Source of the DNA: Macrostomum lignano
Taxonomy: Eukaryota
Reading direction: 5' to 3'
Length of the DNA: 64,000 bases
Assembly (NCBI GenBank): GCA_002269645.1
Contig: NIVC01000105.1
Location: 535,992-599,991 of the forward strand
How positions within the stretch are numbered: position 1 is the stretch's first letter; every line of letters starts with the position of its first letter. The notes beneath the pieces are model-generated. The model was not told where the DNA came from, made no database searches, and worked only from the letters and a program-made list of their open reading frames with translations. The position numbers and the translations under genes are program-made. Below, in pieces: positions 20,630 through 44,754 of this stretch.

Positions 20630-21660
20630 TTACTAATCTGGAAGAGTGGTGCTAATCTGGAGGAGTAGTGCTAATCTTGGCAAATTGTTGCTAATCTGAG
20701 CGGAGTGCTAATTATTAGGGGTAGTGGTGCTAATCTGGGGGGGAAGTCTGGGGGCTCAGTAATGCTAATCTGAGGAGCGGTGCTAATCTGGGGGAGCGGT
20801 GTTAATTTTGTATAAAATTGTGCTAATTTTTGGGAAGTTCTGCTAACTTTTGGGGAGTGGTGCTAATCTGGAGGAGTAGTGCTAATCTTGGCAAAGTGTA
20901 GCTAATCTGGAGGAGTAGTGCTAATCTTGGCAAATTGTTGCTAATCTGAGCGGAGTGCTAATTATTAGGGGTAGTGGTGCTAATCTGGGGGGAAGTCTGG
21001 GGGCTCAGTAATGCTAATCTGAGGAGCGGTGCTAATCTGGGGGAGCGGTGCTAATTTTGCAAAAAACTGTGCTAATTTTTGGGAAGTTCTGCTAATTTTT
21101 GGGGAGTGGTGCTAATCTGGGGGTGGTGCTGATCTGGGGGAGTGGTACTAATCTGGGGAGCGGTGCTAATCCGGGGAAGTGGTGGTAATTTTTGGGGAGT
21201 GGTGCTAATAGTGCTAATCTGGGGGAGAGGTGCTAATAGTGCTAATCTGGGGGAGTGGTGCTAATCTGGGGGAAGAAGCACAGAACTTTCAGTGATGTAA
21301 GTTCTGTGGGAAGAAGTGCTAATCTGGAGGAAGTAGTGCTAATCTGGGGGAAGTAGTGCTAATCTAAGGAAGTGGTGCTACTTTTGGGGGAATGATGCTA
21401 ATCTGAGGAGCGTTGCTAATCTGAGGAGCGTTGCTAATCTGAGGAGCGTTGCTAATCTGGGGGGAAGTAGTGCTAATCTGAGGAGCGGTGCTAATCTGGG
21501 GGGAATAGTGCTAATCTGAGGAGCGTTGCTAATCTGAGGAGCGGTGCTAATCTGGGGGGAAGTAGTGCTAATCTGAGGAGCAGTGCTAATCTGGGGGGGT
21601 AAATAGTGCTAATCTGAGGAGCGTTGCTAATCTGAGCAGCGGTGCTAATCTTGGAAAAGT
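20630..21660. repeat. Minisatellite (about 18-21 bp, core GTGCTAATCTGGGGG / GTGCTAATCTGAGGAGCG)
   Basis: Dozens of copies; an approximately 240-bp block is duplicated (about 20,630-20,870 vs 20,880-21,110). Confidence 0.9.
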
Positions 21661-22402
21661 GTTGTTAAGGTGAGTGGTGCTGAGTTTGTTTTTGCAAAAA
21701 TGAGAAAAAGTAATTTTTGATTAATGGAAATGGTAATTATGGTTACCATTGGACCAAAATAAAAACCAATTGGTGTCATTTCTAAGGCCCCCCAGCGGGG
21801 GGGCTAATGGCTAGTCCTATATACTAAAAATGAAATGTGTGTCTCTGTGAGATAGATTTCAGAAAAAACGGCTTAACCGATTTTCTTCAAACTTGCACCA
21901 TTCGATCAGAAATTTTTCTGGGACGGTACATGCATCTTGGCTAAGAAATTGCTCAATGTTAAAGGGATTAAATATTCGAAAAACATGCTTTTATGCAAAG
22001 GTCAAGCCAAATTTTCGACTTGAAATGCGTTGTAAGAATGCTAGAGAAAAAACTGACTGGCTGAATTCCGATTGTGATAAAGATTGCATCACAAAAAGTT
22101 GAAAACAGTGTCAAAGAAATGCACACACGACTTGATAGAAATTGCGTAACCAATATTGCTAACTTAAATTGGGACTGATACTGGCTGACTGAGAAATTGA
22201 TTATGTCATAACTTTTTACTCCAATTGACTTGCTGTAAGAATTGAATTATAAGGGCCACAATTCATGTTCTCAAATTAAAAAGAGATAGCCTAGATGCGA
22301 GCAGACTGGACAGCTAATGTAGTGACCTGGGTTCCAATCTTAGTAGAGCAAAATAATGTTAATGTTAAATGTTACATATGTTAAAACACCTTCAAAACAC
22401 AA

Positions 22403-25400
22403 CATGCTAAACATAAAAGGGCCACCATGCCAAGCATATACGTGACTCCATGTCGAACATTAAAGAGCAAACATGTCAAACATTAGAGCCACCATGTCGA
22501 ACATTAAAGAGCCACCATGTCAAACATTAAAGAGCTACCATGTCAAACAAAAAAGAGCCACCATGTCAAAAATTAGAGCCACCATGTCGAACATTAAAGA
22601 GCCACCATGTCAAACATTAAAGAGCTACCATGTCAAACAAAAAAGAGCCACCATGTCAAAAATTAGAGCCACCATGTCGAACATTAAAGAGCCACCATGT
22701 CAAACATTAAAGAGCCACCATGTCGAGCATATACGTGACTCCATGTCGAACATTAAAGAGCCACTATATCAAACAAAAAAGAGCCACCATGTCGAACATT
22801 AAAGGGCCACAATGTCAAAAATTAAAGAGCCACCATGTAAACATAATAGAGCCACCATGTCCAACATTAAAGAGCCACCATGTCAAAGATTAAAGAGCCA
22901 CTATATCAAACATTAAAGAGCTACCATTTCAAACATAAAAGAGCCACCATGTTGAACATTAAAGAGCCACTGTAAAACAAAAAAAAACATTTCGAACACT
23001 AAAGAGCCACCATGTCGAACATTAAAGAGCTACCATGTCAAACATTAAAGAGCTCCCATGTCAAACATTAAAGAGCCACCATGTCAAACATTAAAGTGCC
23101 ATCGTGTCGAACATTAAAGAGCCACCATGTCGAACATAAAGGAGCCACCATGTCGAACATTAAAGAGCCACCATGTCAAACATATACGTGACTTCATGTC
23201 GAACATTAAAGAGCCACCATGTCAAACATAAAAGAGCCACTATGTAAAACATATATGTGACTCTATATCAAACATATACGTGACTTCATGTCGAACATTA
23301 AAGAGCCACCATTTCAAACATAAAAGAGCCACTATGTAAAACATATATGTGACTCTATATCAAACATATACGTGACTTCATGTCGAACATTAAAGAGCCA
23401 CCATATCAAACATATACGAGTAAGAGACTTTATTTCAAACATAAAAGAGCCACCATGTTGAGCATTAAAAAGCCACAATGTAAAACATAAAAACGACCAT
23501 TTCGAACATTAAAGAGCCACCATGTCGAACATTAAAGATCCACCATGTCAAACATTAAAGTGCCATCGTGTCGAACATAGAAGAGCCACTATGTTGAACA
23601 TTAAAGAGACACCATGTCAAACATTAAAGAGCCACCATTTTGAACATTAAAGAGCCACCATGTCGAACATAAAGGAGCCACCATGTCGAACATAAAAGAA
23701 CCATCATGTAGAACATAAAAGAGCCACTTTGTTGAATATTAAAGAGCCACTATTTCAAACATTAAAGAGCCACCATGTCAAACATTAAAGAGCCACCATG
23801 TCGAACATAAAGGAGCCACCATGTCGAACATAAAAGAGCCACCATGTCGAACATTCAAGAGCCACCATGTCGAACATAAAAAAGCCAGCATGTAAAACAA
23901 CTGAGCCACCATGTCAAACAAAAAAGAGACACTATGACAAACATAAACGTGACTCCATGTCAAACATTAAAGAGACACCATGTCAAACATAACAGAGCCA
24001 CCATGGCGAACATTAAAGAGCCACCATGTCAAACATTAAAGAGCCACCATGTCGAATATAAAAGAGCCACCATGTCAAACATTAAAGAGCCTCCATGTCG
24101 AACATTAAAGAGCCACCATTTCAAACATAAAAGAGCCACTATGTAAAACATATATGTGACTCTATATCAAACATATACGTGACTTCATGTCGAACATTAA
24201 AGAGCCACCATGTCAAACATAAACGAGCCACTATGTAAAACATATATGTGACTCTATATCAAACATATACGTGACTTCATGTCGAACATTAAAGAGCCAC
24301 CATGTCAAACATATACGTGACTTCATGTCGAACATTAAAGAGCCTCCATGTCAAACATAAAAGAGCCACTATGTAAAACATATATGTGACTCTATATCAA
24401 ACATATACGTGACTTCATGTCGAACATTAAAGAGCCACCATTTCAAACATAAAAGAGCCACTATGTAAAACATATATGTGACTCTATATCAAACATATAC
24501 GTGACTTCATGTCGAACATTAAAGAGCCACCATTTCAAACATAAAAGAGCCACTATGTAAAACATATATGTGACTCTATATCAAAAATATACGTGACTTC
24601 ATGTCGAACATTAAAGAGCCACCATGTCAAACATATACGTGACTTCATGTCGAACATTAAAGAGCCACCATGTCAAACATAAAAGAGCCACTATGTAAAA
24701 CATATATGTGACTCTATATCAAACATATACGTGACTTCATGTCGAACATTAAAGAGCCACCATTTCAAACATAAAAGAGCCACTATGTAAAACATATATG
24801 TGACTCTATATCAAACATATACGTGACTTCATGTCGAACATTAAAGAGCCACCATATCAAACATATACGAGTAAGAGACTTTATTTCAAACATAAAAGAG
24901 CCACCATGTTGAGCATTAAAAAGCCACAATGTAAAACATAAAAACGACCATTTCGAACATTAAAGAGCCACCATGTCGAACATTAAAGATCCACCATGTC
25001 AAACATTAAAGTGCCATCGTGTCGAACATAGAAGAGCCACTATGTTGAACATTAAAGAGCCACCATGTCAAACATTAAAGAGCCACCATTTTGAACATTA
25101 AAGAGCCACCATGTCGAACATAAAGGAGCCACCATGTCGAACATAAAAGAACCATCATGTAGAACATAAAAGAGCCACCATGTCTAATATAAAAGAGCCA
25201 CCATTTCGAACATAAAAGAGCCACTTTGTTGAATATTAAAGAGCCACTATTTCAAACAATAAAGAGCCACCATGTCAAACAATAAAGAGCCACCATGTCG
25301 AACATAAAGGAGCCACCATGTCGAACATAAAAGAACCATCATGTAGAACATAAAAGAGCCACCATGTCTAATATAAAAGAGCCACCATTTCGAACATAAA

Positions 25401-28024: not shown

Positions 28025-28498
28025 CCGTACAGTAGTAGTATACGTTTTTTTTTACTTCCGTGTGCACGCAGTCTAAAATTCTTTGTGCACGCTAAATATC
28101 TTTTACGCAACGTGATTATTTAGACGAATTGCATATCCACCTGTCCAAAATACAAGTAACCAATTCTAGCAATGGTGACACAAACACATTTCAAAGGATT
28201 CCATTCAAGCCAAATTTACTCCAAAACTATTCACACATTTCAAGTGTTATTGAAATATTGAAAACTTGCGAATATTATCACCCTTTGGAAGAAAGATAGT
28301 GAATGATCTATTCTTGAGTACCTATAGCATTTTCGCACCAACTTGAGTAGATGGTTTACAGATACTATGTTAACAACCACGTCAACATGCTTCTTCTTTA
28401 CTATATATATATACGAACACAGACACAGAAAATATTCAATAACTCAAACCAAGTCTACATTATACTACTTGTTCAACTATATGTACATCTGAAGAGAA

Positions 28499-29328
28499 AT
28501 GAAGCGATCACGTCAGCAGGAATTTGCCGAGCGCTATGTTAAACAAGGTAAGATAATCACCTACTCTAGTTCAGTTTTCTTTTTAGATTGACAGTTCGCT
28601 AGTTTAGTTTCTAGATTGATTGTTAGTTCATTTTCTGTTTAGACCTATCCTCTTTTAGCTCAGTTTACATTGATTCTCTGCTAGTTCAGTCTCTAGATTG
28701 ATTGTCTGCTAGTTCGGTTTCTGTTTAGACTGATTCTCTGCTAGCTCAGTTTCTATATACATTATATACATGCACCTATACCAAATTTCCCCTCATCTTA
28801 TCCATTATTACAGCATTCAAGAATGGTGTCTTCACGCGGCCACCTCCAGATCAGTGCAAACGCATTTGCCACGACACCACCACATCCAATTCTGCTGCAA
28901 GAGCATCACACTACTCTACATCTCTCGCCAAAGTAACCTCGATTCATGTCGAGAGACAGACAACTGAGCTAGATCGCAGTTACACAAGAACTGATGTTAT
29001 TCAGTCAGTTAGGCAACAATCGAAACCACGACCAACTGACCAACTGCAGTATGCACCACCACCATCACCAACCAGCTACAATGATCCAACAGAGCAAGCT
29101 TGCAGTAGGCCTACAAGTACTAAACCAACGAAAGCAACTGAAACACCGTCATTTTCAATTGCTACGAGTATTTCTAGCCAAGTTCAACAGCTGCTAAACT
29201 CGCCAGTTATTGTACAGAAGGACATCAAGTCTGTAAAAGTCTCTCAAACAAGCCCAGGCTTCTACCAAGTAGAATTAACAAAAACTTGTAATACAACTCA
29301 AGTATTTGAGTATTGGGACCTATCTTAA
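28499..29328 (+). CDS. Predicted two-exon ORF, 187 aa, unknown function (exons 28,499-28,547 and 28,814-29,328)
   Basis: CAAG|GTAAGA donor and TTATTACAG|C acceptor join in frame (G+CA = Ala). Exon 2 is stop-free until TAA at 29,326-29,328. Absent from the ORF track because exon 2 has no start codon. Confidence 0.6.
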
Positions 29329-30284
29329 AAAGACATTTTTTCTAACTCTTCATCAAATTTTGCCAGCAATGTGTCCAAGTAATTGCTCTTTTAGTATATA
29401 TCAAACAATTATGTAATCAATAATATAATCTCTATAAATTCATTATTCTAAAAAGTTCTTTCAATTTTATTCACCATTCATTGAAATTATTTAATTCAAT
29501 ATAAAGTCAATATCCTGTACAGTTATCATTAAACAAAAAATATTAATCCCTGCAAATAAACTCTTTCAATATACTTAAACTTGTATTAAATGCTTCTTTA
29601 ATTAATTTCTTACAAAATAAAAATTTAATAATGCTATATATTTAACAACAAAAAATTATATACAGTATTTAACTACTGTTACACTAATCAATAAAAAATG
29701 ATACAGTAATACAAAAATACTAAAACACAACACAAATGCAAGTGAATATATAATCATAAAATGCTAGTTTACTTTTGCAAGAAAAATATTAATACAACAA
29801 CACTCCACTCAGGAAAACATACAAAAATATTAAAGCAAACAATTGTAATAAAAGATAAAAAAACACACACACATACACACATGAAATATTTACAAAATTG
29901 TAATCAAATCCATATAAGGCAAGAATTAGTAAATTAAAAACTAAATATTTTCAAATATTAAATGTAGTAATTAAGTTTTTGTTTAAAAAAATATACTATT
30001 TGCTTTATTATACACTATATATTTTTCTCCATCTATTGGGTTTAATATTTCTAGTGATCAAAGCTTTTTAAACATTCATTTTCTAGGTTTTATAAAAAAA
30101 TATAAAAAAGTTATATGTCTAAATGCTTCTTATAATTTTTATATAATGAATGAAAACTATGAAAACTATTTTTATTACAGTTAATCAATAGAAAATAAAG
30201 GAGATAGGCAACTTTTGAAAAAGTAAATAAAAAGTAAAAGTAATTTTAGTTCGAAAAAAACGTCAAAAAAAACAATCAAAGTAA

Positions 30285-30530
30285 TCAATTAGCAACTAGA
30301 GTTGCGTCCGAATCTATGGTTGATTCCTGTAGCCTATTCAAGCCATGCTGAGTGCTTGCAACTTCTGCTTGATTTAATCCATATGGCGTTGATGTAACTA
30401 TTTTAGCTAATCGACGAGGAGACTGCCAGTCGTCATTGTCAATTGTGCCCGAGGAAGAACCACAATTGGTAATAGGTGCTTTAATAGGAGTTACAGCTGA
30501 CACACTTGTCAATGCCGTCTCTTCCATCAT
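30285..30530 (-). CDS. Small Ser/Thr-rich hypothetical protein
   Basis: 81-aa ORF amid very AT-rich DNA; no recognisable motif. Confidence 0.3.
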   Translation of the reverse strand: MMEETALTSVSAVTPIKAPITNCGSSSGTIDNDDWQSPRRLAKIVTSTPYGLNQAEVASTQHGLNRLQESTIDSDATLVAN

Positions 30531-30639
30531 TTTAGTACCACCAGTAGCAGGTGAACTAAAAGTAATTGAAGGACACAGTTAACTTTTAATTAATAATATT
30601 CTTTTTACAGTGTATCAAATCCAAGACCAGAAAAATAGC

Positions 30640-30840
30640 TTACATGCTCTTCTTCCAATATCGCAATCGAAATGCGACAGCAACAACGCACATGACAGCA
30701 ATGACAGCTACAATAAGAACCTGAACCAGGACAATTCTTTCAGTTTGGCTCACTAATTTGTCGATATTACTCACTAGCTTACTAATGGATTCCGCATTTC
30801 CTTGAACTAAAATTACAACTTTATTAGTTTGGGGTACCAT
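30640..30840 (-). CDS. Small single-pass membrane protein, 66 aa
   Basis: ATG start in AAAATG context; hydrophobic IVLVQVLIVAVIAVMCVVAVAF followed by basic RLRYWKK. Confidence 0.45.
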   Translation of the reverse strand: MVPQTNKVVILVQGNAESISKLVSNIDKLVSQTERIVLVQVLIVAVIAVMCVVAVAFRLRYWKKSM

Positions 30841-31159
30841 TTTCTTCTAAACTGAATAAAAATATGCAAGACAAACAAAAGAAATTCTCTAAAATAAAAG
30901 GCACGCCTATAATAATAATCCAACTCTAGACTCTAAACTATGAATCAACGTAAAGAAAATCTCCGTTTCAAAAATTTTTTTTATTATATAAAAAAATATA
31001 ACAAAAATTCGTAAACGAATACTTTGTAACTAATTAGAAATATTAAGTTTGCCAACTGTTAAACTTAAATACTTGAGCAAGATATAGGTATGGATGTAGG
31101 TACGATTAGATACATCAATTTGTAAAAATTATCTTTCTTTAGTATGCGGAAAATACGTT

Positions 31160-31900
31160 TCTTTAGCCATGGTCTGGCTTTTGCCTCATGATTTAGCCGT
31201 ATGCTCCGACTTTTGCCTCAACAGTATGATTTAGTCGTATGGTCCGACTTTTATCCCAACAGTATGATTTAGCTGTGGTCCAGCTTTTGCCTCAACAGTT
31301 TTTAGCCGTGGTCCGGCTTTTTTGCAAAAGTATTATTTAGCTGTGGTCTAGCTTAAAACTGCATCAACAGTGATTTAGTTATAGTCCAGGCTTAACTACC
31401 TCAACGATGATTTATCTGTAGTCCAGGCTTAACTGTCTGAACAGTAATTTTAGCTGTAGTCCAGACTTAACTGCCTCAACAGTGATTTTAGCTGTGGTCC
31501 AGGCAACTGTCTCAACAGGGATTTAGCTGTAGTCCGATTAGCTTAACTGTCCAGTTATTTAGCTGTGAGCCAAGCAGCAGCACCCGTCTCAACAGTGAGA
31601 ATTAGCTATGGTCAGCTTTACCTCAACTGTGATTTGCCTGCTGTGGTCTAAGCATAACTGACTCAACAGTAATTTTAGCTGTAGTCGTCCAGCTTAACCA
31701 CCCGTCCAGTTTAATAACCATGGTCCAGCTTAACCACCGTCTCAACGTACTGCGATTTAGTCGTGGTCCAGCTTAACCGTCTCAACGTACAGTGATTTAG
31801 CCATGGGTCTAGTAGCAATTAACCGTATCAATAGTGATTTAGCCGTGGTCTAGCTTAACTGTCTCAACACAGTAATTTAGCTTAGTCCAAACAGCATTTG
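31160..31900. repeat. Degenerate tandem array of about 35-37 bp (TGATTTAGCCGTGGTCCAGCTTAACTGTCTCAACAG)
   Basis: About 20 diverged copies. Confidence 0.85.
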
Positions 31901-32751
31901 TGTGTCAACTGCACTGACTGCATGTGGTTATAGCAGTAGCAGTCATTATAGTCCCAACAAGCTGCGCGTCGCAGCATGCTAGTGTAACTCTATATAGCTT
32001 CTGCTCAATATAGGACTGCAAAAGCTGAGTTACAACTATACCTTTTTCTGTTTGAAAAGTAACACTCTATATATAGGTTACTCAAGCAATCTCTTGTCAC
32101 CGTGCGAGCTAAAAAATTCCAACATGCAAGCAAAACTTTCAATAAATTAATTTCATAGCACCGCGTGCAGCTTATTTTTACTCTAAAATCCAAGATTGCT
32201 AATTTTTCAAGTCGCAAAATATTGTAATTACATTCTACTTGAGAACAAAACCAATCTAATGAAGCAACAACCAGCAGTCTTCTTATTAAACGCTTGCCAT
32301 CGTGTTACTCTTGCAAATTTATAACTAGTGTGCCTAAGATTCATTAATTTTATTGTATAAAATATCAACCTGTATTTGCGTAAAATTAGACCTAATCATG
32401 CAACCCACCCTAGAAACTTATGCCACCTTTGGCACGCAACATGTCTTAATCAGCACGCAACAATTAAATTTGTTTACTAGTTCACAAGCAGCATGCAATG
32501 CTTGCTATAAATACAAGACCCGAAATGGTCAATTTTTCATGAGCTCAATACAGCAAAAGAAATACTATATTCAATTGCTTGTAAGACATGGCAGCTTGCA
32601 TCAAGACGGAGTCAATTGTACGCTCCGACTCGAGTCCGATTTTCTACGTTGGAGAGCAGTCTACAACCACGACTGGTTCGTCCTGCCAGTTTCGATCTAT
32701 TGCGTGGAAACCATCAATCGAGTGTACAAAATGGATATATATGTTGTAAAA

Positions 32752-33171
32752 ATGTCTCCAGCGAAAGATAAAGGTTTTAAAAAGAAAAAGAAGAGCAGTC
32801 GTATAAAGAAGAAATCTATTAGAAATATTAATAAAAAGCAACAAGGTTTTGGTGTCGTAAATTGGTTAATTAATCATTTACCATTTGAAGCGCACTTACC
32901 CGGCGGATATCAGTTTTGTGGTCCAGGTACGCAACTGCAAGCTAGGCTAGCAAAAGGACAACGAGGAATTAATCGACTTGATAATTTTTGCATGCTTCAC
33001 GACGTGGCCAATGATAAAAATTCGAACGTGCAAGAGAGATTAAAAGCTGATAAGCTATTAGAATCTGGTGCACGAGAAATTGCCCACGATCCGTCTACTG
33101 GTTGGAAAGAAAAACTAGCTGCGAAGTTGGTTACCAAGGTTATGCAAGTTAAGCAACGCTTTGGTGCTTGA
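32752..33171 (+). CDS. Maverick phospholipase A2-like protein (parvovirus VP1u-type)
   Basis: HLPGGYQFCGPGT calcium loop and GINRLDNFCMLHDVAN catalytic HD helix (usual HDxxY is HDVAN here); basic N-terminus. ATG at 32,731 or 32,752 within ORF 32,353-33,171. Confidence 0.85.
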   Translation: MSPAKDKGFKKKKKSSRIKKKSIRNINKKQQGFGVVNWLINHLPFEAHLPGGYQFCGPGTQLQARLAKGQRGINRLDNFCMLHDVANDKNSNVQERLKADKLLESGAREIAHDPSTGWKEKLAAKLVTKVMQVKQRFGA

Positions 33172-33835
33172 AAATGCAGCAGCCATACAATATGCAACTA
33201 GCTCACGATTCTACATTTATTATTGCTGGACCTTCAAACTCGGGTAGAACTGAATGGACGTTGCGTTTGTTGACTGAACGAAAAGAATTATTTGATGAAA
33301 AACCGCGTCGTCTTGTTTGGTGTCATGGATCAAGTTTGAAACCAGACGATCAACAACGAATTAGAACATGCTGGCAAAAGAGCGGTCTTGACCCTATTGT
33401 TTTTGTACCCGAATTCACACCACAGATGATTAATCGTTTTTTACCACACGATTAAGTTGTTGTTGACGACTTGCAAAGCGAGATTGCTAAGTTGCCAGAA
33501 TTTACTAGTATGTTTACAAAGCATGCGCATCATATCCCTTTGACTTGTCTGTATCTTTGTCAAGGTCTTTTTAACAAGTCTGATCCAGAAGCACGCATGC
33601 GAAGTTTATCAGCTAGTTATATTTGTCTAACTCGTAGTGTGCGCGATCGAACCGCAGTTGAGCATCTCGGTCGACAAATGTATCGACCGCAGACGCAACA
33701 AATAACAAACCTTTTTCATATTTATTCATTGACCTGCGGCAAGTGACACCAGATTTTTTACGACTGAGAACAGGAATCTTTCCTTGCGATGAGCAAGTTG
33801 TCTATACTCGTGAATGTGATGCAAAGTTTGTGTAA
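33168..33835 (+). pseudogene. A32/FtsK-like DNA packaging ATPase
   Basis: Walker A GPSNSGRT (K to R); Walker B VVVDDL directly after an in-frame TAA (33,453-33,455); LCQGLF and RSLSASY; after a frameshift PFSYLFIDLRQVTPDFLRLRTGIFP ending TAA at 33,833-33,835. Confidence 0.92.
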
Positions 33836-33892
33836 TATTATTATAAGCAAATTATTAACTGTTGTCAATATTAGTTTGTATTTTATTTCAAA

Positions 33893-34678
33893 ATGAGTTT
33901 TTACGTTTTTTTGCCGTCAAACGATATCAGTTACGAAACCAACTCGCCTAATGAATTTCGAGTACGACTAACTGAACCAATAAATTTATTGAACGGATTC
34001 TTCGAGGTTGCACTAGTTGAATTACTGTGCCATGGAGCAATTACGACGCCAAATGCTCATCGTGAGCGTCGATTTTAAGTTCCATATTTTGCGGACATTG
34101 ACTCAATAATCCGATTAAAGAAAAACTATTGGGGTCGCGTTTGGGCAGAGGCAGACTTGGATGCTTACGTTTCCTGGCAACCGTCTGGTACAGATGAAAA
34201 ATTTGCCTGGCTTTTACGAAATTCTGGCGTAAAAACTATTGGATTAGAATTACCGGTTACATTTATGGACGCTTTCAAATTTGACTCTTGGAAGAAACTT
34301 TCTGGACTAGTCTCGGAAAAATTATCAAAACCTACCGCTGGTAGTGTACAACCACCGGATGGATCATACTTGGATGTGGTAAAAAGTCTCGACAATACTC
34401 TAGCGCTAGTACCTGAGAACTATTATGTTTTTTATTGTGTTCTATCGCCTGGTGAAGCTATACGACTTGTTTCGCATGGAGACTATCTTCAAAAAACGGA
34501 AGAAGAAGTGTACATCAAATTACACCAATATTGGTTGAGAAATCGTATTTGGCGCATTAACAAAACCTACTTGGATGCTGTGCTACCTTCTCCGATTCCT
34601 AGTAAAACGGTTTACATGTACTGTTACACAGACATAATCGAGTATCAAGCAGTGGGAAGTACATCAGTACCGTTGCTA
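33893..34678 (+). pseudogene. Outer Maverick penton (minor capsid protein), 5' part
   Basis: MSFYVFLPSN...NEFRVRLTEPINL...FEVALVEL N-terminal signature; in-frame TAA at 34,076-34,078; ends YCYTDIIEYQAVGSTSVPLL at the insertion site. Confidence 0.88.
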
Positions 34679-35166
34679 ATCAGTACCATCAGTAGAAGGC
34701 ATGAGGGGGCTTCTGGGACAAAATTTTTCACGTCCTCCAGAATCCACCTAAATCCATCCATATTATCCCCGACAGAATCAGAAAAAAAGGGGGGTCGCAC
34801 TCGCTCACAAAACGTCCTCCATAATCCCATTAAATCCATCCATATTATCCCCGACAGAATCATGAAAAAGTGGAGGGGTCGCACTTGCTCCGAAAACTTC
34901 AAACATAATCGTATTAAATCCATCCAATATTTTTCTTCGCTTCTGTGTATCCAGGTTTGTGAAATTCGGTGGCTGCTTGGACGAATTCATTGTAAGATTG
35001 CTGCTCCCTATTTATTAGCCCGGTAACTCGTTTCTCTGCTTGTGCTAGCTTCTCCAATTCAGATATCTGCTGTGTACTTTTTCGCTTCATTTCTTATTTT
35101 ATTTTATTTTAGTTAAAAAAGAACGACCCACTGACACCAGTTTTCTACAAAATTAACAAGCCTATT

Positions 35167-36105
35167 TTGAGTGATGATAGCACAATCAAAGCGACTCAGG
35201 TAAGAGTTCCCAGTCAGGAAAATCAGAATGAAACTAATCTTGGTCCTGGTCAAACACTGACATTTACATACAATGGATGTTCGTCTTTGGTTAGTGTGCA
35301 CAGTCTTAAGAGCGGATTCCATATGACATTTCAATTCAAGACAAAGGGTGGTGCGGATGCGGCTCGTGCTAACGTTGACAAGCATGATGCGGATGTGGCT
35401 CTGACCAGTAACTTTTGGGCGTACATGTTCAAGGAGTTTAGTGTATCGAATGGGAGCACTGAGTTGGAGCGAATCGCCAACTTTGGAATTGTCTATGACG
35501 CTCATTGTTTGATCGAGAATCCTGATTTTATTCAGTTGGGAAGTGGTGCGGGTTTTATTGCAGATGAAAAAGAAGGAGATATCAATGACAGTGGCTATAA
35601 AAAGAGGAAGAAGAGATACAACTATGCATTGCAAGGTGCTGATGATGCTGCTAAGAACCCGCTGTATCGGTCTGTTGATGTATTTGTACCATTGAGATGC
35701 ATGAGTGGATTCATTATTAATATGAGAAACCCAAATAGCATTATACGCTACATGCATGGAGACGTTTGGTCCATTCAGCATGAAATCAGTGATAATCTTT
35801 ACCCTGCACTGCCACAAAATGGAGATTTCAGTCAAAACAAGATTAGCAAATTTTACAGCGAGTTGGTCGACTTGGCTGTGAAAGAGAACAATGGAATTGC
35901 TATCACTGCTCTTCAATATGGAACTCTATATCCGATGTTTGGCGCTGATGTGTCTGCCAGACAAATGCCTACTGATAACAGCCCTGTGAATATCGTGACT
36001 AACATTGAAAGGACTGCCGCAACACCCGTGGACCTGTACATTGTCTATGCATTTGAGAGGAAAGTGAAGCTTAACATGATCAACAATTCATCCAGTAAAG
36101 TTTAA
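35167..36105 (+). CDS. Second-lineage Maverick double-jelly-roll MCP with in-frame internal deletion, 312 aa
   Basis: VALTSNFWAYMF..ELERIANFG, VFVPLRCMSGF, then a jump to NLYP..DFSQNKISKFY, QYGTLYPMFGADVS and LYIVYAFERKV. Much shorter than the 440-aa outer MCP. Confidence 0.8.
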   Translation: MSDDSTIKATQVRVPSQENQNETNLGPGQTLTFTYNGCSSLVSVHSLKSGFHMTFQFKTKGGADAARANVDKHDADVALTSNFWAYMFKEFSVSNGSTELERIANFGIVYDAHCLIENPDFIQLGSGAGFIADEKEGDINDSGYKKRKKRYNYALQGADDAAKNPLYRSVDVFVPLRCMSGFIINMRNPNSIIRYMHGDVWSIQHEISDNLYPALPQNGDFSQNKISKFYSELVDLAVKENNGIAITALQYGTLYPMFGADVSARQMPTDNSPVNIVTNIERTAATPVDLYIVYAFERKVKLNMINNSSSKV

Positions 36106-36128
36106 ATATTTTTTTGTGGGTGAAAAAA

Positions 36129-36992
36129 ATGGAAGCCATAGCCGAAAGACTAAACAACATTGTTTCACACTCTAAAGAGAGCATTCCTATTACAATAACC
36201 GGGCGAATTAATGACTCAAACGGGATGTTTGTTGAAAAATTAGAGCAGGCGATTCGCCTGGATCCAGGCGCTAATTACCATGTCTATCTTAACGACTTCA
36301 CTGGTTGGTCAAACGTTCCCAATGTGATGGCAGCAAATAATAAGTTTTATTACAAATGGAAAGGTGCAGCAGCAGACCCTGTGGTATTCCATGTGAGCAC
36401 GCAGAGTGTGGATACCTACAATAACTTTCTAGAAAATGTCTTTACTAAGAGAGGTCATTTTGAGACACCTGATGCGAGTAAGCCAGAGAAGAAACTGTTC
36501 CCTGTCAAACTATCCTATGATCTCACTGTAATGAGAGTGGTCATGCAAGTTCACAAAGATGCGGAGGTTGAGTTTAAAGATGACACTTGGTATAGGGAAT
36601 TGGGATTCGAGAAGAAAGTTTATAAGGCAGAATCCGCGCCGCGGACCGCCACTCAAGCGACGGGGGCTGTTATCATGGCCCGGGAAAGTGTACGCGGTTT
36701 GTTCTTAGCACCCAATATTGCAGACATTGTAAAGGGTTTGAATATTCTAATCAGAAGTAATCTCAGTCTTGATTGGGTATTTAAAGGAAAGCGAACGAAT
36801 ATTTTGTACAACATCTCCAACTCTGTTGCTGGAGGACAGATGGTGGTAGAGAAACCAAATCCAGTGAAAAGAGTTGTATTGAGTAATAAGGAGATTCACG
36901 AGATTGTGCTACAGTTTGAGACTGAAGATGGGATGGGCGTTGATTTTAATGGGGAAGAGTTTGTATTGACGTTGATCATTGAGAGAATGTGA
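36129..36992 (+). CDS. Second-lineage Maverick penton (minor capsid protein), apparently intact, 287 aa
   Basis: AIRLDPGANYHVYL..PNV..NNKFYY; LGFEKKVY; NILIRSNL..ILYNI..G.MVVEKPN; IHEI..EDGMGVDFNGEEFVLTLII. No stops or frameshifts. Confidence 0.85.
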   Translation: MEAIAERLNNIVSHSKESIPITITGRINDSNGMFVEKLEQAIRLDPGANYHVYLNDFTGWSNVPNVMAANNKFYYKWKGAAADPVVFHVSTQSVDTYNNFLENVFTKRGHFETPDASKPEKKLFPVKLSYDLTVMRVVMQVHKDAEVEFKDDTWYRELGFEKKVYKAESAPRTATQATGAVIMARESVRGLFLAPNIADIVKGLNILIRSNLSLDWVFKGKRTNILYNISNSVAGGQMVVEKPNPVKRVVLSNKEIHEIVLQFETEDGMGVDFNGEEFVLTLIIERM

Positions 36993-37408
36993 TGTTAAAA
37001 TAACTAAATATTTTATTTCAGTTCTATTTCGAATTTTTAGTATATTTTTTTCTAGTCATATTACTTATTAGTAGGCAACCTCACGCTTTTTGGACTGACC
37101 AAGCATTATTTTTTTTCTAACCAGTATTTAATGAAAGGATTGAAAACACAAAAGAAATCGGACACAAAAAGATAGTCTGTGCTCAGTCTATTGTTTTATT
37201 ATGTCAAAAGTTGGTTAACTTCGCAAGTATTCGCACATAACAAACACAAGTCTGTCATTAGTCTTTCTCAGAAAAAAAGCTTTTTTGCACAGTTTAATTC
37301 GTGCGAATTCCTGTTAAGACAGGAAATGGCGCGAATCAAACTGCGCACTAGTCTTTCTCAGAAAAATGCTTTTTTGCACAGTTGAATTCGTGCGAATTCC
37401 TGTTATGC

Positions 37409-37502
37409 ACATGATTTTTACGAACGTTCGTAAAAATCATGTAACCACTGAGAGCCGCTTTATGCTGCACATGATTTTTACGAAAGTTCGTAAAAATCAT
37501 GT
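37409..37502. repeat. Two 34-bp palindromes (one perfect, one with a single mismatch)
   Basis: ACATGATTTTTACGAAC|GTTCGTAAAAATCATGT at 37,409-37,442 and a copy at 37,469-37,502. Confidence 0.95.
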
Positions 37503-38526
37503 TATCAGTGGGAATCGAACCATGCGGGGCAGACTGAGACCGGTTTCGGGCTTGTTTGCCCTCGTCAGTCAGTCATAGCCACACGAGGTCGGCTCCACCT
37601 CTAGCCAGCTGAGTGGAACTGCTATTTATACGCTCTTGCACCAAGTCCTTGCCTTGCACATGGCGACATTTTCTAGTCCACCATGTGAGGAATTCGCGCC
37701 ATGTTCAAATAGCTTTACTATCAGTAAGCTATCGCTTACAAATACGAGCCGCTTTATGCTGCACATGATTTTGTCAGTATTTTTAGATCTTGCGTCTGCA
37801 CTCTACAGGGTACAACCTTGTAGTGTAGTTGGCTACTACAACTGCCTTATAACTTCAGCAAAGTTATAATAGCTGTCAAAATTGTTAATGACTACTCCGT
37901 GTTTTTCAAACCAGTAAGATTTAAGTGCTTGATTAATATTAGGGACATTGATATCAACGTCGGGCCAATATTTTCTCATGTATTCGCTGCATTCCTTCTT
38001 GCATCGGTACTTGGATTTGTACAATGGATTAGGCTGAGTATAATAAGAACCTGGAGAGACAACTGGAAACATTTTTATTGAGAATTTAGATTTTTTTCAA
38101 AGGGTAAGGACCCTGTGTTAGGGGATTTAAAGTCTTTGGGATCTGGTTTCAACGCTTCGGATTGAATGTGGGGAGAAGAATGCAGATTATTTTCTGATTG
38201 TTTCGAAGATGCTATGGGTGGATGTTGGTGTCAATGAACATAACAGGTGTTAGTGGACATCTGTTATGCACTGATTCTGTCAGGGATAATATGGATGGAT
38301 TTAATACGATTATGTTTGAAGTTTTCGGAGCAAGTGCGACCCCTCCACTTTTTCATGATTCTGTCGGGGATAATATGGATAGATTTAATGGGATTATGGA
38401 GGACGTTTTGTGAGCGAGTGCGACCCCCCTTTTTTCTGATTCTGTCGGGGATAATATGGATGTATTTAGGTGGATTCTGGAGGACGTGAAAAATTTTGTC
38501 CCAGAAGCCCCCTCATGCCTTCTACT

Positions 38527-38736
38527 TTGCTTCGAGTTGTGGAACTCCAACAAAAGAAAAACGGAGAACTTGTACGCGATAGCAGTGCATTACAAACACC
38601 CTACTACTTGAAAACAAATCGACAACAAATTCACGAGATTTCGATTCAACTATTGGACCAGCGCGGAAAACCATTTAATTTTCATCCGGGAGCACACGTT
38701 GTTGTCGTACTGCATTTTAGACACAGGTCGGACTAA
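38527..38736 (+). pseudogene. Outer Maverick penton, 3' part
   Basis: LLRVVELQQKK...PYYLKTNRQQIHEISIQLLDQRGKPFNFHPGAHVVVVLHFR is the penton C-terminus and joins in frame to VGSTSVP. Confidence 0.9.
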
Positions 38737-38792
38737 TTTATAAGCAAAGATTAATTGTGTAAAAGAAAATTTTGTGAATTTGTTTTGTAAGA

Positions 38793-39221
38793 ATGAATGA
38801 ACTAACAGAAAAAGGAAAACGAAATGCTCGCTCATTGTGTCAGTGTGCTTTTTTACTACAAATTGTTCATCAGCTAAAGCATCCAAAGCAGAGAAAAAGT
38901 TTTTTACAAACACTTTCAGAGTCGGAGATACGATTTCTAGTAGACTTTCTGTTGAATATTATTAGTGGACGTATTAAAATTAGTAACTGTAACAAAAGAC
39001 GACTTGAGAAGCATCGCAGATATATACGTCAGCTTTTGGAACAGAAGACTCCAATTACTGCAAAAAGGAAAATACTTGTCCAACACGGAGGATTTTTACC
39101 TTTTTTGGCTCCAATTATTGCCGCTCTACCTGCTATTAGCACTGCGCTTGGGATAACGTCTGGAGTAGTTGGTACCGCCGCGGGAGCAGCAAATTTAATA
39201 CGATCAATTCAACGAAAGTAG
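38793..39221 (+). CDS. Conserved small Maverick protein with QxGGFL motif
   Basis: LLNIISGRIKIS..KRRLEKHRRYIRQL..KRKILVQHGGFLPFLAPII followed by a hydrophobic/amphipathic tail. Confidence 0.75.
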   Translation: MNELTEKGKRNARSLCQCAFLLQIVHQLKHPKQRKSFLQTLSESEIRFLVDFLLNIISGRIKISNCNKRRLEKHRRYIRQLLEQKTPITAKRKILVQHGGFLPFLAPIIAALPAISTALGITSGVVGTAAGAANLIRSIQRK

Positions 39222-39229
39222 TAGGAATA

Positions 39230-39918
39230 ATGCGAGCCAAGGAGAGTAGTAGTTTTCAACGAATGTATCTAGTACCTGAATCTGTGTATCAATCTACATG
39301 TCAAGGAGCAGAACAAGGCTCGTCACCAGCTGCTGAGGTACCTCGAAAAACTGAAGTTTTAGACGCACCGCAAGATGGTCTGGCAAAAAATATGGTGGAA
39401 ATGAGAGAACAAATGGATAACTTGGACAAGGAAATGGAGAAGGAGCCAAATTACACAGCTCAATTGAAGCGAAGCAGATTGGAAGACAAACTTTTAAAAT
39501 TACGCAAAGTCTATCGCACTGGAGACGAGGACAATCTGCCACTTGTTCGCAAAGTGACTAATGTAAGAAGTTCATATGCCAGAGAATCAAGGGAAATTCC
39601 TAAAGTTTTTTACCACGTTTCGAAGCTCTCGCTCAAAACCTATTTTCGGACATGGACAAGAATGCAGAACCAATGCTGGCTAATTTGGCTGATGGCGAGA
39701 TACAAGATCTCATGGAATATGTTGTTCGAGACAGACCGCTTAAGCGACACTAGACTCAACCACCTAGTGGACTAAAAACATTTTTAGACTTTCTTCGAAA
39801 ACGTGGAATCGCAGCAAACCAAATCGGGCGTCATGTACGAAACGAGCTAATGCATGCTCCAAAAACTGTTGCAAAGGAGGATCTTAGTCTGTTTGAAAAT
39901 TATCAAACACTGGCTTAA
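39230..39918 (+). pseudogene. Conserved Maverick ORF of unknown function
   Basis: RMYLVPESVY N-terminus; after a frameshift IQDLMEYVVR..*TQPPSGLKTFLDFLRKRG. Confidence 0.6.
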
Positions 39919-40238
39919 TTTGTTTTGAATGTTTTAACAAAATTGATTCGAGCACTATAAGCTTTTTAAAAAGGTTAATTTTGTTTATGAAAATAAATAT
40001 ATATATAAAATAATATAGAATTATTTTAATATATAAAATATAGAAAATAATATATATATAAGACAAACCATGTCATCTATCTGCCAGAAACTTTTGATTC
40101 GTCTCTGTGAGTTTTTTTGCTTAAAATCCGAATGTGTGCCGTTTCTGGGAGAGGAGCACAACGAGGATACTGACGGAAATTCGATCGAGGCTTCGTTCTT
40201 TTGTTGCAACTGGCATACGAATAGCATCAATCTAACTC

Positions 40239-41397
40239 ATGATGAAGCGAGTGCGTAAGGAAATTGAAGAATTTTTGACGGATGCTTTTTTTAACTTGAA
40301 CAAACCTACTTCATTTAGTGGTAACAAGACTATACTTGTTCGTGAAGTACGTAAAAAGTTTCCACAGATTACGAACAAAGTTGCGAAGCGCGAAGTTGAT
40401 AATTGGGTGCGATCAACAAATGAGCATCATTTATTTCGAAAAACACGACGAAACTTTCCAACTCCAAAAATTAGTGTACCACCAGTTGCAAAGTTTCAGT
40501 TTCAAATCGATTTGGCAGATTTACCTCGATACAAGACGGAAAATCGAGGTTATCGTTACATACTTGTTCTTATCGACTGTTTTACTAGAGTTGTACGACT
40601 AAAACCATTGCGTACAAAGAAGCCTTCAGAAGTTAGTCAAGTAATACTAGAGATTTTTCGAAGTGGTTTTAAGCCTGTTTATTTACAAGGTGATGCTGGT
40701 ATGGAGTTTCTCGGAAGAGCTACACGTCAAATGCTGAAACAGGAAGGAGTTCGATTTTTTGTTAGCCAAAGCAATTACAAGGCAAGCATGGCTGAACGAT
40801 TTATCCGCTCGCTAAAGGAGCGTCTATTACGATACTTTCGAGCAAAAAATTTACCTCGACGGTTTGATATTTTGCCACAATTGGAAGATAATTTCAACTC
40901 TAGTCCTCATCGATCCTTGAGTGGAGAAACACCAAAACGTGTAGAGACAGACCCACATTTACAAGGAATTTTGTGGGACAAAATGTTTGCAAAGTCGTAC
41001 ACTAAAAAGAATGAGAATAAATTTAAAGTTGGTGATTGGGTTAGAATTACACGAGTCGAGGAACATTTGAAAAAGGATACACTACGACTTGGAGTAATTC
41101 AAAATATCGCATTCACCGTGTACACTTGACAGAACCGCCAATGTACGAATTAGCGGACCCTGAAGATGGATTTGAAGTGATTAAAGGAAGTTTAACCAAG
41201 CGGAACTAATGTTGGTAAACGAGACAGATAAAACACCTAATGAAATTGAAAAAGTTATTGAAACTGATCGAGCGAAAAATGGAAGTCGTCTGTATCTAGT
41301 AAAATGGAAAGGTATGCAAATCTCAAGAAGTCAGTGGTTAAATGAAAATGATCTTGACGCAAAGACTGCTAAACTATTTTCTAAAGTGTATAAGTAA
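40239..41397 (+). pseudogene. Maverick rve integrase with C-terminal chromodomain (two frameshifts)
   Basis: PTSFSG, FQIDLADL, YILVLIDCFTR, LQGDAGMEF, KASMAERFIRSLK; frameshifted GTFEKGYTTTWS..YELAD; chromodomain IEKVI..YLVKWKG..SQWLNENDL. Confidence 0.95.
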
Positions 41398-41438
41398 CAC
41401 ATGAATTGGGATTGCATGACGATAAAAAGACTGTTGAA

Positions 41439-41898
41439 ATGGATCCTATTTTTGCTTTTTATTCTGGTCTGAATAGATCTGCTGAAGGTGGAGGTGGATC
41501 TGGCATTCCTGTTTACGAAGGTTACGGTTTTTTTGTCAAATTTGGTGGACAGATTGGTGTATCGTGTACTACGCAACGCAAAGAAAGATTTCTTGGATCG
41601 TGGTCTGGAGTATTTGAAAAGTGCGACAGCAAAAATTGGTATGGGTCGGAAGCGTCACTTGGACACAGAATCGAGCGAAGAGATGTTTAATACACCTGCA
41701 GTCTCGAGACCAAAGCGAAGGAAAAGAACCAGTGGATTGGCTATAAGCTTAGGAAAGAAGAAACGACAAAAGAAACGACGAACAAGACAGTGTGGAAAAG
41801 GACGCGTGAACAAACGAAAACGCAAGAGGGTAGGTGGTAAAAGAAAACGTCGAACTGCTACTGCAAGCAAGAAACTTTTTAGTCTGTTTGAAAAGTAG
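41439..41898 (+). pseudogene. Basic core/DNA-binding-like Maverick protein (frameshifted)
   Basis: FYSG..GGGSGIPVYEG N-terminus then a Lys/Arg-rich tail ending KKLFSLFEK immediately before the MCP. Confidence 0.65.
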
Positions 41899-41899
41899 C

Positions 41900-43222
41900 A
41901 TGAATCATTTGCTTGGACCTGATATTGCTGCTCTTAAAAGTGAATTGTCGCTATTTGATCAAAGTCCTGTTCAGTTTAGTGTTTTGGATAATCGGTATAC
42001 TAACATTCAACCGCAACATGGTATTACAAAAGGATCACCTATCGAATTTGAGGTTGTGCCTGCAGGCGATTTGTATTTGGATCTACAAGAAACTGTGCTC
42101 ACGGTATGCTTCAGCGTTAGTGATAGTGAAGGTGAACCTATAGATGCAACAAAAAATTTTGTTTGTTTGAATAATTTGGCTATTGGAACATTGTTTGAAG
42201 ACGTTCAATTTACTATTGGCGATACTGTAGTTGAAGGTGGTAGTTTTATGTATCCATACAAAGCTATGCTTCTTACATTACTGGAATACGGACATACAGC
42301 TCAGAAGGCTGGTTTACTACCGTGGGGATTTTACAAGGATACAGCTGGTAAAATGAATGCAACAAATGAAAACGATGGACGAACAAAGAGGCAGGCGCTT
42401 ATTGCTAACAATAGGCGGTGCACTGTATCTGGACCGTTATTCTTGGATTTGTTTCGTCAGCCTCGGTATCTACTATCAAAGACACCACTGCGGATCAAGC
42501 TCATACCGGCAAAAAGTAAATTTGTCCCGATTGGGTCAACATTAGAAGCTGGTGCGGTATTTAAAGACAATGAGATCAAATTTTTGCGTGCAGAACTACG
42601 ATTGCGGTTTGTTCAACCCTCGCCGAGTGTTATCAGTGCACATGCTCATGGACTTAAAAGTCACAATGCATTATATCCGAACCGAAGTCTAAGCCTTGGT
42701 ACGTTTACTATACCCCGACGATCGTCTAGCCATACGCATGAAAATGTGTTTCCTAGTGGAGTACCACGGCTTTTATTGATGGCAATCGTAAGCAACAAGG
42801 CATTCAATGGAAGCATGGACACTAATCCGTTCAACTTTGAGCATGCAAATGTGAGCGGTATTGGTGTGTTTGTGAATGGAGACTCGGTACCATCGCGTCC
42901 GCTGCAGACAAACTTTGGAGATGATTGTGTGACAGAGTATAATTTTTTGCTACAACAGCTTGGAATCTATCTACAGGGACGAGATATTGGATTTAATATG
43001 CTGGATTACGCCAATGGTTACTCAATTTTTGCATTCAGTCTTGGAAGTGAACCTGGTGTTGGACGGGGAGTGCAACTGTATAAGGAAGGAAATGTAAAAC
43101 TAGAGTTACGCTTCAATGCTGCAACTAGTACCGTGTACAACGTTATATTTGGAGGTATATTTGACAAGCAACTGCAACTGACTGAACTTCGCGACATTGT
43201 TCCTGGCACAGTATGGAAGTAA
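41900..43222 (+). CDS. Outer Maverick major capsid protein (double jelly roll), intact 440-aa frame
   Basis: KSELSLFDQSPVQ..PIEFEV..DLYLDL; YPYKAML; GPLFLDLFRQPRYL; PRLLLMAIVSN.AFNG...NPFNF; GYSIFAF; GNVKLELRF. ATG at 41,900 rather than the GTG start in the ORF track. Confidence 0.95.
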   Translation: MNHLLGPDIAALKSELSLFDQSPVQFSVLDNRYTNIQPQHGITKGSPIEFEVVPAGDLYLDLQETVLTVCFSVSDSEGEPIDATKNFVCLNNLAIGTLFEDVQFTIGDTVVEGGSFMYPYKAMLLTLLEYGHTAQKAGLLPWGFYKDTAGKMNATNENDGRTKRQALIANNRRCTVSGPLFLDLFRQPRYLLSKTPLRIKLIPAKSKFVPIGSTLEAGAVFKDNEIKFLRAELRLRFVQPSPSVISAHAHGLKSHNALYPNRSLSLGTFTIPRRSSSHTHENVFPSGVPRLLLMAIVSNKAFNGSMDTNPFNFEHANVSGIGVFVNGDSVPSRPLQTNFGDDCVTEYNFLLQQLGIYLQGRDIGFNMLDYANGYSIFAFSLGSEPGVGRGVQLYKEGNVKLELRFNAATSTVYNVIFGGIFDKQLQLTELRDIVPGTVWK

Positions 43223-43419
43223 TTGATTCTATCCTAGATCGTGGTGTAACAGATCGCTTCCTTCGCAATGTTGTATCGAAATTGTGCGCACATTTTTTAA
43301 ATGTTGTATTTCTTGGTGTTTTTCCTCAAAACTTTGTTGGTGGACTTAGACGCTTACCTTAAGACGGTAAAGACTATTTTTTTATCGTTAATACTGACGT
43401 CTCTAACCTGCCCGGAAAA
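43213..43419 (+). pseudogene. Adenain-like cysteine protease, N-terminal fragment
   Basis: FLGVFPQ...*..FFIVNTDVSNLPGK; cut just before the expected catalytic HW. Not in the ORF track. Confidence 0.8.
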
Positions 43420-44130
43420 TCTGATGGTGTTAACTTCCCAATATCTTTAAGCCACTCATTGATCTGCAGCTTATTTTTTGGACTAATGCGGAACTTAGCA
43501 GGTCCAGAGTTAAGATTTCCAAGCAACCTTTGTGCAACACCTTTGTAGAGAACATGCATTGAATCACTAGGAAAACTCCTAACCATGTCCACAGCAATCT
43601 GTTCAAAAGTTGATGATGTTGCCTTATGATGCTCAGTTTGTAAACGCAAACGAAATGAATCTTTAGTCCGCCGAATTGCATTTGTTTCAGGAAAAACAAC
43701 CATTCGAGCTTGTTCATCAAACACACCTTTGGTTGGACAATGATCACATGAATAATAGCCTGTATGACCAGCTGTATTCTTTACAAATTTTCTTGCAGGA
43801 AGGTCACATACAATCCACTGAAGTGTAACTGGCACTTTTTGCCTATATGGTACAAGCTGTAATCCTTGGTTCTCAGCTAGTTCTTTCATTTCCAAGACAA
43901 ATTCTAGCAAAAATTCATTAGAAGAATCTGGCTTTCCTGGTCCATAGTAGGCACCAATAAGAAAAACACTACCAGGAAGCTTTTCCAAAGTGCCAAGAAT
44001 TGTCCAAAAGCCAAACTGACTATTATAAATAGGCGCACCATTAATATTAACCAGAATCTTGATATTATCAGTATTAACTAGTTGTTCACAAATCTCAGGA
44101 ACATGAGAAGCCAAAAATACTAGACCTTTC
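43420..44130 (-). pseudogene. CACTA/EnSpm-type transposase, central fragment
   Basis: VNINGAPIYNSQFGFWTILG; IVCDLPARKFVKNTAGHTGYYSCDHC; SDSMHVLYKGV; ends TPSDF at the Maverick junction. Confidence 0.88.
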
Positions 44131-44754
44131 TTTATACCATTCTCTCCCATTGTCTCTCATGTCTGCTCTCACATATTTCTCTTCTCTCTCCACTCGTCTC
44201 TATAATCTCTTCCCTCTCCTCTCCCTCTCTCCTCTGTTCTAGCTCTACTGTCTCATTTCTCGTCTCTTCTTTCTCATCTCTCCTTTCTCCTCTTTCTTCT
44301 CTTCTATCTGATCTCTTCTCTCTTCTGTTTGTATCAGACTTGTATCTGTACATGTATTTAGAGGTTTTAGAGATTTAGAAGCCTTGCGTTTCTTGGATAT
44401 CAGTACTTGCTGAAAAATACATGCATCTCATATCTATGCAAATTTGCCTCAGTGCATAAAGAGTACAAATGATATTTACATAAATAAATCTGAGGCTTCA
44501 TGCTAAGTTCTGCATGCAAATCACTATATTGAGTTATTTATTTACGAACCAAATTGTTATCATGGTTACCAACCATAGCAGTTAGCTAAAAATGTTAAAA
44601 CTGAAAAAAAGATTGCAACGAAAAATAACGATATGGCTGATTTGAGGTGAGCTGTTTTATATAGATAGATTTCTATCTCCACGCAAGCCAGTCAGTTATT
44701 TAGACTGTATTTATATGACTTCCAATCGTATCGTATCAGTATAGGCCAAGTTTG

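Follow-up and report, generated by a model that had tools for sequence, protein, structure and literature searches.

A nested deletion remnant of a long Maverick inside the penton gene of another Maverick in Macrostomum lignano

Introduction

Is a 3.8-kb insert that lies inside a Maverick penton gene, and that carries two capsid-type frames between inverted repeats, a small element that spreads as such or what is left of a large one? The window that raises this question is a 64,000-nt stretch of the Macrostomum lignano genome (GCA_002269645.1, contig NIVC01000105.1, 535,992-599,991, forward strand). A sequence-only reading of it had proposed a satellite-like, capsid-only Maverick derivative that had inactivated a virion gene of its host. 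The insert is a piece of a second-lineage Maverick nested in another Maverick's penton; we here examine its ends, its genes, its relatives and its host element.

Results

The inner element (34691..38526; 3,836 bp) is an internally deleted copy of a Maverick family of ~14-17 kb. Its termini read AGTAG...CTACT, and its 236-bp arms differ at two substitutions and one gap. The size, ends and near-identical arms given in the sequence-only reading were thus correct, but 236 bp is not the length of the TIR. The left TIR (34691..34926, + strand) is cut at nt 236, inside a repeat that in five long copies measures 455-1,124 bp. The right end (37838..38526, - strand, ~690 bp) matches the full TIR of the long copies.

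The empty outer-penton site contains a single TTGCTT, uninterrupted in 14/14 other outer copies fetched, and the same TTGCTT follows the insert on its right (38527..38532, + strand). On the left (34673..34690, + strand), TTGCT, five of the six target bases, is followed by a 13-nt filler, so that the window copy lacks a clean 6-bp TSD. The filler contains a 9-nt copy of flank situated 16 nt upstream; among 200,000 simulated random 13-mers, 150 had a 9-nt match to the flank. The outer penton is therefore interrupted as had been claimed, but not split exactly.

The host is a Maverick of a different family (28034..43419, + strand; right end cut at 43419). BLASTP detected no similarity between inner and outer MCP (E 0.49) or between inner and outer penton (E 2.6), in agreement with the earlier view that the inner capsid genes belong to another lineage and are not a self-duplication. 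The outer element lacks 7.2 kb, comprising polB and a dUTPase-like gene, at 32734/32735, 2 kb from the insert. Its ATPase and integrase carry stops or frameshifts and its protease is cut; the MCP frame is open. The outer penton gene (33893..38736, + strand), split by the insert, is found in 34 copies at ≥97% identity, the window's included. It also bears a premature stop at 34076-34078 that is missing from 14/14 other copies. Because the penton has a stop of its own and the element is without polB, the role of the insertion as inactivator of the outer element is questionable, and the claim that it inactivated the outer virion gene is not sustained. Identity to the nearest relatives found is 98.2-99.0% for the inner genes; for the outer penton and the post-insert stretch it is 98.5-98.6%. 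The insert is later than its host by nesting order, but divergence, similar in both, does not show it to be much younger.

The outer family also includes an amplified polB-deleted subfamily. Of 40 scored hits, 30 span its 3.16-kb deletion, 28 of them at 100%; 13 termini of such copies, in 17 stretches, all have different flanks, and a 6-bp TSD surrounds the only copy for which both ends were found.

Two internal deletion junctions were identified in the inner element. At junction 1 (34926..34927), the left TIR is joined to the interior of a gene, so that the breakpoint interrupts both. What is missing here amounts to 11.0-12.8 kb relative to four long copies and 18.3 kb relative to a fifth, with an overlap of 1-2 bases depending on the comparator. 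The interrupted gene is a divergent parent gene of ~410 aa, the first ~55 codons of which remain (34927..35090, - strand). At junction 2 (35711..35712), 300 bp have been lost in frame within the MCP, with a 2-base overlap; this loss holds against all five long copies compared. In all, three lesions crowd into 1.05 kb of sequence at the insert's left end.

The double-jelly-roll MCP remnant (35113..36105, + strand) is a 330-codon open frame missing 100 codons and an initiator ATG, its first in-frame ATG being codon 71. Among 47 distinct MCP copies, some of which may be haplotype duplicates, 46 have the initiator, the window copy being the exception, and in 32 the frame comprises 424-431 codons. 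The 100-residue block is kept in 10/10 other aligned rows. It covers predicted strands 210-217, 234-249, 267-280 and 284-292 and the start of 297-303, and on this model would run from the last part of the first barrel into the first part of the second. The window frame has no match in Pfam. The 428-aa natural MCP of another copy reaches DJR-like_dom at E 3.1e-05, just below the Pfam cut-off, and a 44%-identical relative passes it. A low-confidence model of the 428-aa protein (pLDDT 52) matches the Sputnik and PBCV-1 MCPs at E 2e-09, with low TM-scores. The initiator and 100 residues being absent, a working capsid protein from the window MCP is unlikely.

The penton (minor capsid) gene (36129..36992, + strand; 287 aa) is an open frame. 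Its model (mean pLDDT 78) finds its best match in the mavirus penton (E 9.7e-10), followed by the Sputnik and adenovirus pentons. The proposed structural check on the inner capsid genes thus gave folds matching DJR MCPs and the mavirus penton. No polB, integrase, ATPase or protease is encoded among the frames of the 3,836-bp insert, as the sequence-only reading had stated. Its further statement that the insert encodes only MCP-like and penton-like proteins holds for the two long frames but overlooks the stump of the 410-aa gene. Likewise, both capsid frames are free of stops as described, but the MCP frame has lost 300 bp and its start.

The autonomous parent that had been sought is an abundant family of long Mavericks with the same TIR. 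With the insert as query, 267 matches were obtained, the best 40 of 845 candidates being scored; in the other copies listed, the match starts past the left arm and shows a 300-bp gap in the MCP. The first 29 terminus bases have 188 exact matches in 764 Mb, against 0 for the control. Among the 100 of these 188 termini listed, 30 inward-facing pairs were present; 29 span 12,467-31,902 bp, and the only short pair is the window's, at 3,836 bp. For 37 unpaired termini, no opposite end was present in the stretch obtained, which reached <3.9 kb inward in three cases; these 37 were drawn from 40, and the remaining three lay within stretches already obtained. Five long copies, read over their full length, measure 14.3-22.5 kb, and the TIRs of all five start AG/AGT. 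The 6-bp TSD of the long pairs is perfect in 21/27, has one mismatch in 2/27 and is absent in 4/27. One long copy matches DNA_pol_B_2 (E 1.1e-15), rve (E 5.3e-10), Pox_A32 (7.5e-07) and Peptidase_C5 (3.6e-04, just below cut-off) in Pfam and contains a protein-X-like frame. Similar polB and integrase frames are present in other long copies, and the long copies also carry the insert's capsid genes.

Neither deletion junction recurs. DNA searches found no other locus with junction 1 (best 40 of 590 candidates scored) or junction 2 (best 40 of 422 candidates scored). In the 764-Mb genome, the junction 1 pattern occurs exactly once, and that of junction 2 once with one mismatch allowed, each time in the window. 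Three genome hits with two mismatches to junction 1 were considered as siblings and rejected, as they show no similarity to the inner family. As a positive control, the junction search recovered the amplified outer-family deletion in 30 of 40 scored hits.

The idea that copies are enriched inside other Mavericks was not borne out: none of 91 flanks of other inner copies (64 loci or ends) has outer-family sequence at the junction, the flank probes being derived from the inner and outer families only. One flank has an outer-like polB ~1 kb from the end of a 16-kb inner copy; nesting of that copy is unsupported because its TSD is clean and there is no match on the other side. The other flank matches are a weak ATPase-like one 1.4 kb away, a dUTPase-like one and a piece of the inner family itself.

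Two repeats lie between the penton gene and the right end. A palindromic 60-bp tandem repeat (37406..37513) differs in copy number among family members; Rfam miRNA matches at 37392-37515 correspond to this palindrome, score far under gathering and were discarded. It is followed by a retrozyme-like 234-bp piece (37507..37740, - strand) of a ~390-bp tandem repeat found elsewhere in the genome, to which it is 90-91% identical. The ~390-bp period was recovered by TRF in two of three arrays and as equal spacing by BLAST in the third. The hammerhead core (37514-37586) is identical letter for letter to most array units; its Rfam HH9 score is 32.7 bits, under the gathering threshold of 52, and the fold z of the piece is -2.6. 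The putative ribozyme is antisense to the capsid genes. No RNA runs containing the piece were found among the public records searched. Five of 29 testable inner copies contain it, and further copies with it came up in another search, defining an inner subfamily; being common to that subfamily, it predates the deletions of the window copy. From its sequence, the piece fits a fragment of a non-LTR retrozyme. It shares ~390-bp tandem units, within the 170-400 nt given in the portion of PMC7229834 drawn on here, and a type-I-like hammerhead core, but the Maverick carries no more than 234 bp. Among the papers listed in a literature search, none was by its title on retrozyme cargo in polintons.

Discussion

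We favour, with a probability of roughly 0.7, the reading that the insert is the single-copy remnant of a long Maverick that integrated here and was then deleted in place. A long copy would have been integrated by the family integrase with a 6-bp stagger, leaving the clean right junction. Breakage near the left end, at one or more places, would then have been repaired by polymerase-theta-like end joining, which may have excised 11-13 kb between the interior of the left TIR and the gene preceding the MCP. The same repair could have taken 300 bp of the MCP and left the filler. That the capsid genes survive is explained by their position, no more than 3.6 kb from the parent's right end, and not demonstrably by selection. 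No working MCP is expected from the remnant, nor has it spread, both junctions occurring once in 764 Mb. Deletion in place is supported by the target site, abnormal in the window copy and perfect in 21/27 long pairs, and by the neighbouring outer element, which carries a 7.2-kb deletion of its own. Several observations weigh on the other side. No undeleted allele was seen at the locus, so the order of events could be reversed; the junction overlaps of 1-2 nt are near chance; and the penton frame is undamaged, while the MCP loss is in frame, a 1-in-3 outcome for a random deletion. In C. elegans, theta-mediated joining yields templated inserts and mostly small deletions in the part of PMC4490562 considered here, and would therefore fit the filler better than the loss of 11-13 kb.

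A different order of events would make the insert a defective product of protein-primed replication, arising by deletion or copy-back and integrated once in trans, with the MCP lesions concurrent or later. Its intact, 99% alike termini and integrase-like right junction are compatible with this, and the outer family shows that a deleted Maverick can be mobilised in trans in this genome. There is, however, no sibling at another site, and the left junction is abnormal, unlike those of 21/27 long copies. The likeness of the two TIRs gives no pointer to copy-back, since long copies show the same degree of likeness (median 3 substitutions). We consider a defective product unlikely, if still worth weighing. 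A misassembly in which repeat copies were collapsed or mis-joined is much less probable. Both families are multi-copy, and among the contig pieces listed from four public runs none bridges the window-specific junctions. These contigs show the empty outer site in 3/4 runs, likely in other copies, and the loose ends continue as the long form. Against an error of this kind, the junctions contain new templated bases and two separate deletions, the outer sequence is in register on both sides, the TIRs differ at three places, and private substitutions are spread throughout both elements.

The insert as a member of an amplified, selected capsid-only satellite family that targets other Mavericks is the reading to which we give least credence. 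A capsid lineage distinct from the host's, the retention of both termini and the open penton frame speak for it. These features are outweighed by the existence of a single copy (one short pair among 30), by a long parent with the same ends, by a broken MCP that lacks its initiator and 100 aa and has lost the Pfam DJR match, and by the stump of a third gene at junction 1. Nor do the flanks argue for targeting, with 0/91 showing outer-family sequence at the junction and two having other-Maverick-like matches 1-1.4 kb away. Amplification is the defining trait of MITE-like non-autonomous and satellite families; the window copy resembles them in keeping both termini and losing its enzymes, but has not amplified. 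The sequence-only reading had itself named the contrary outcome, a single copy that is simply a deleted full-length element: one copy is what was found, and deletion in place is favoured.

The insert is thus a real, nested deletion remnant of an already known kind of element. By the definition in the sections of PMC4028283 and PMC8097293 relied on here, the long parent is a typical Maverick/Polinton, with AGT TIRs, 6-bp TSDs, pPolB, RVE, ATPase, adenovirus-like protease, DJR MCP and penton, whereas the window copy retains termini and damaged capsid genes alone. Among vertebrate Mavericks, 96% of 3,511 loci are eroded and non-coding according to the same part of PMC8097293, and the window copy is such a locus, differing in that it was eroded by large deletions that spared both termini, and in that it is nested inside another family. 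Polintons that lack polB and still spread, and others with TE cargo, are described in the available portion of bioRxiv 10.1101/2025.02.07.637071; the outer polB-deleted subfamily and the retroelement piece of the inner subfamily resemble these, but such elements spread after their loss, whereas the 3.8-kb insert did not. Searches by title and abstract, with subscription journals, Repbase reports and supplements, where non-autonomous Polintons may be described, outside their scope, listed neither a capsid-only Maverick family nor a Maverick inserted into another Maverick.

As one more eroded Maverick copy, the insert is of small importance alone. It does warn that a frame without stops, flanked by inverted repeats, may conceal a large in-frame loss together with a missing start. 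Were it a defective genome after all, it would have captured helper-dependent replication of a Maverick in the germ line of an animal. The genome is of greater use: of its two young Maverick lineages, one comprises at least 30 polB-deleted insertions that are nearly identical, and this makes complementation in trans testable.

The outer element carries a 7.2-kb deletion of its own (window 32734/32735), and ~1.6 kb of its sequence (29560–31152) is without a match in two other copies of the outer family. A further element truncates its right end at 43419. On the minus strand, a frame of 260 codons (43377–44156) has no Pfam match and is putatively akin to a piece of CACTA-type transposase. Tandem-repeat arrays with units of 23 bp and 18–20 bp lie outside the Mavericks (1298–1800, 22388–24500 and 20630–21680).

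Phospholipase-A2-like and adenovirus protein-X-like frames are common to the outer family (window 32338–33168, plus strand) and the long copies of the inner family; the outer phospholipase-A2-like frame scores a Pfam E of 4e-06. The outer family additionally bears what is, judging by motifs, presumably a dUTPase-like frame. One subfamily of the inner Maverick carries a retrozyme-like fragment (37507–37740, minus strand) whose hammerhead core looks intact. The fragment runs antisense to the penton and MCP genes and adjoins a palindromic tandem repeat with a 60-bp unit, the copy number of which varies.

TIR length ranged from 455 to 1,124 bp among long inner copies (the stretch L033–L034 versus the others), and the two TIRs within one copy could differ by as many as 25 substitutions over 236 bp. 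Together, this spread and the within-copy differences suggest ends recombinant between subfamilies. At some termini (in the stretches L102 and L111), the ~82-bp internal TIR repeat is expanded, forming arrays that reach 1.5 kb.

A 3.16-kb deletion inside polB was seen in outer-family copies such as those in L136–L137 and L194–L195 (junction at L137:2817). These polB-deleted copies are a genuinely amplified, non-autonomous subfamily. The junction was present in 30 of 40 scored matches, 28 of them identical, and all 13 termini had different flanks (13/13), with a 6-bp TSD seen in one copy. Integrase, ATPase and capsid frames are retained, and a polB-bearing relative likely replicates the subfamily in trans.
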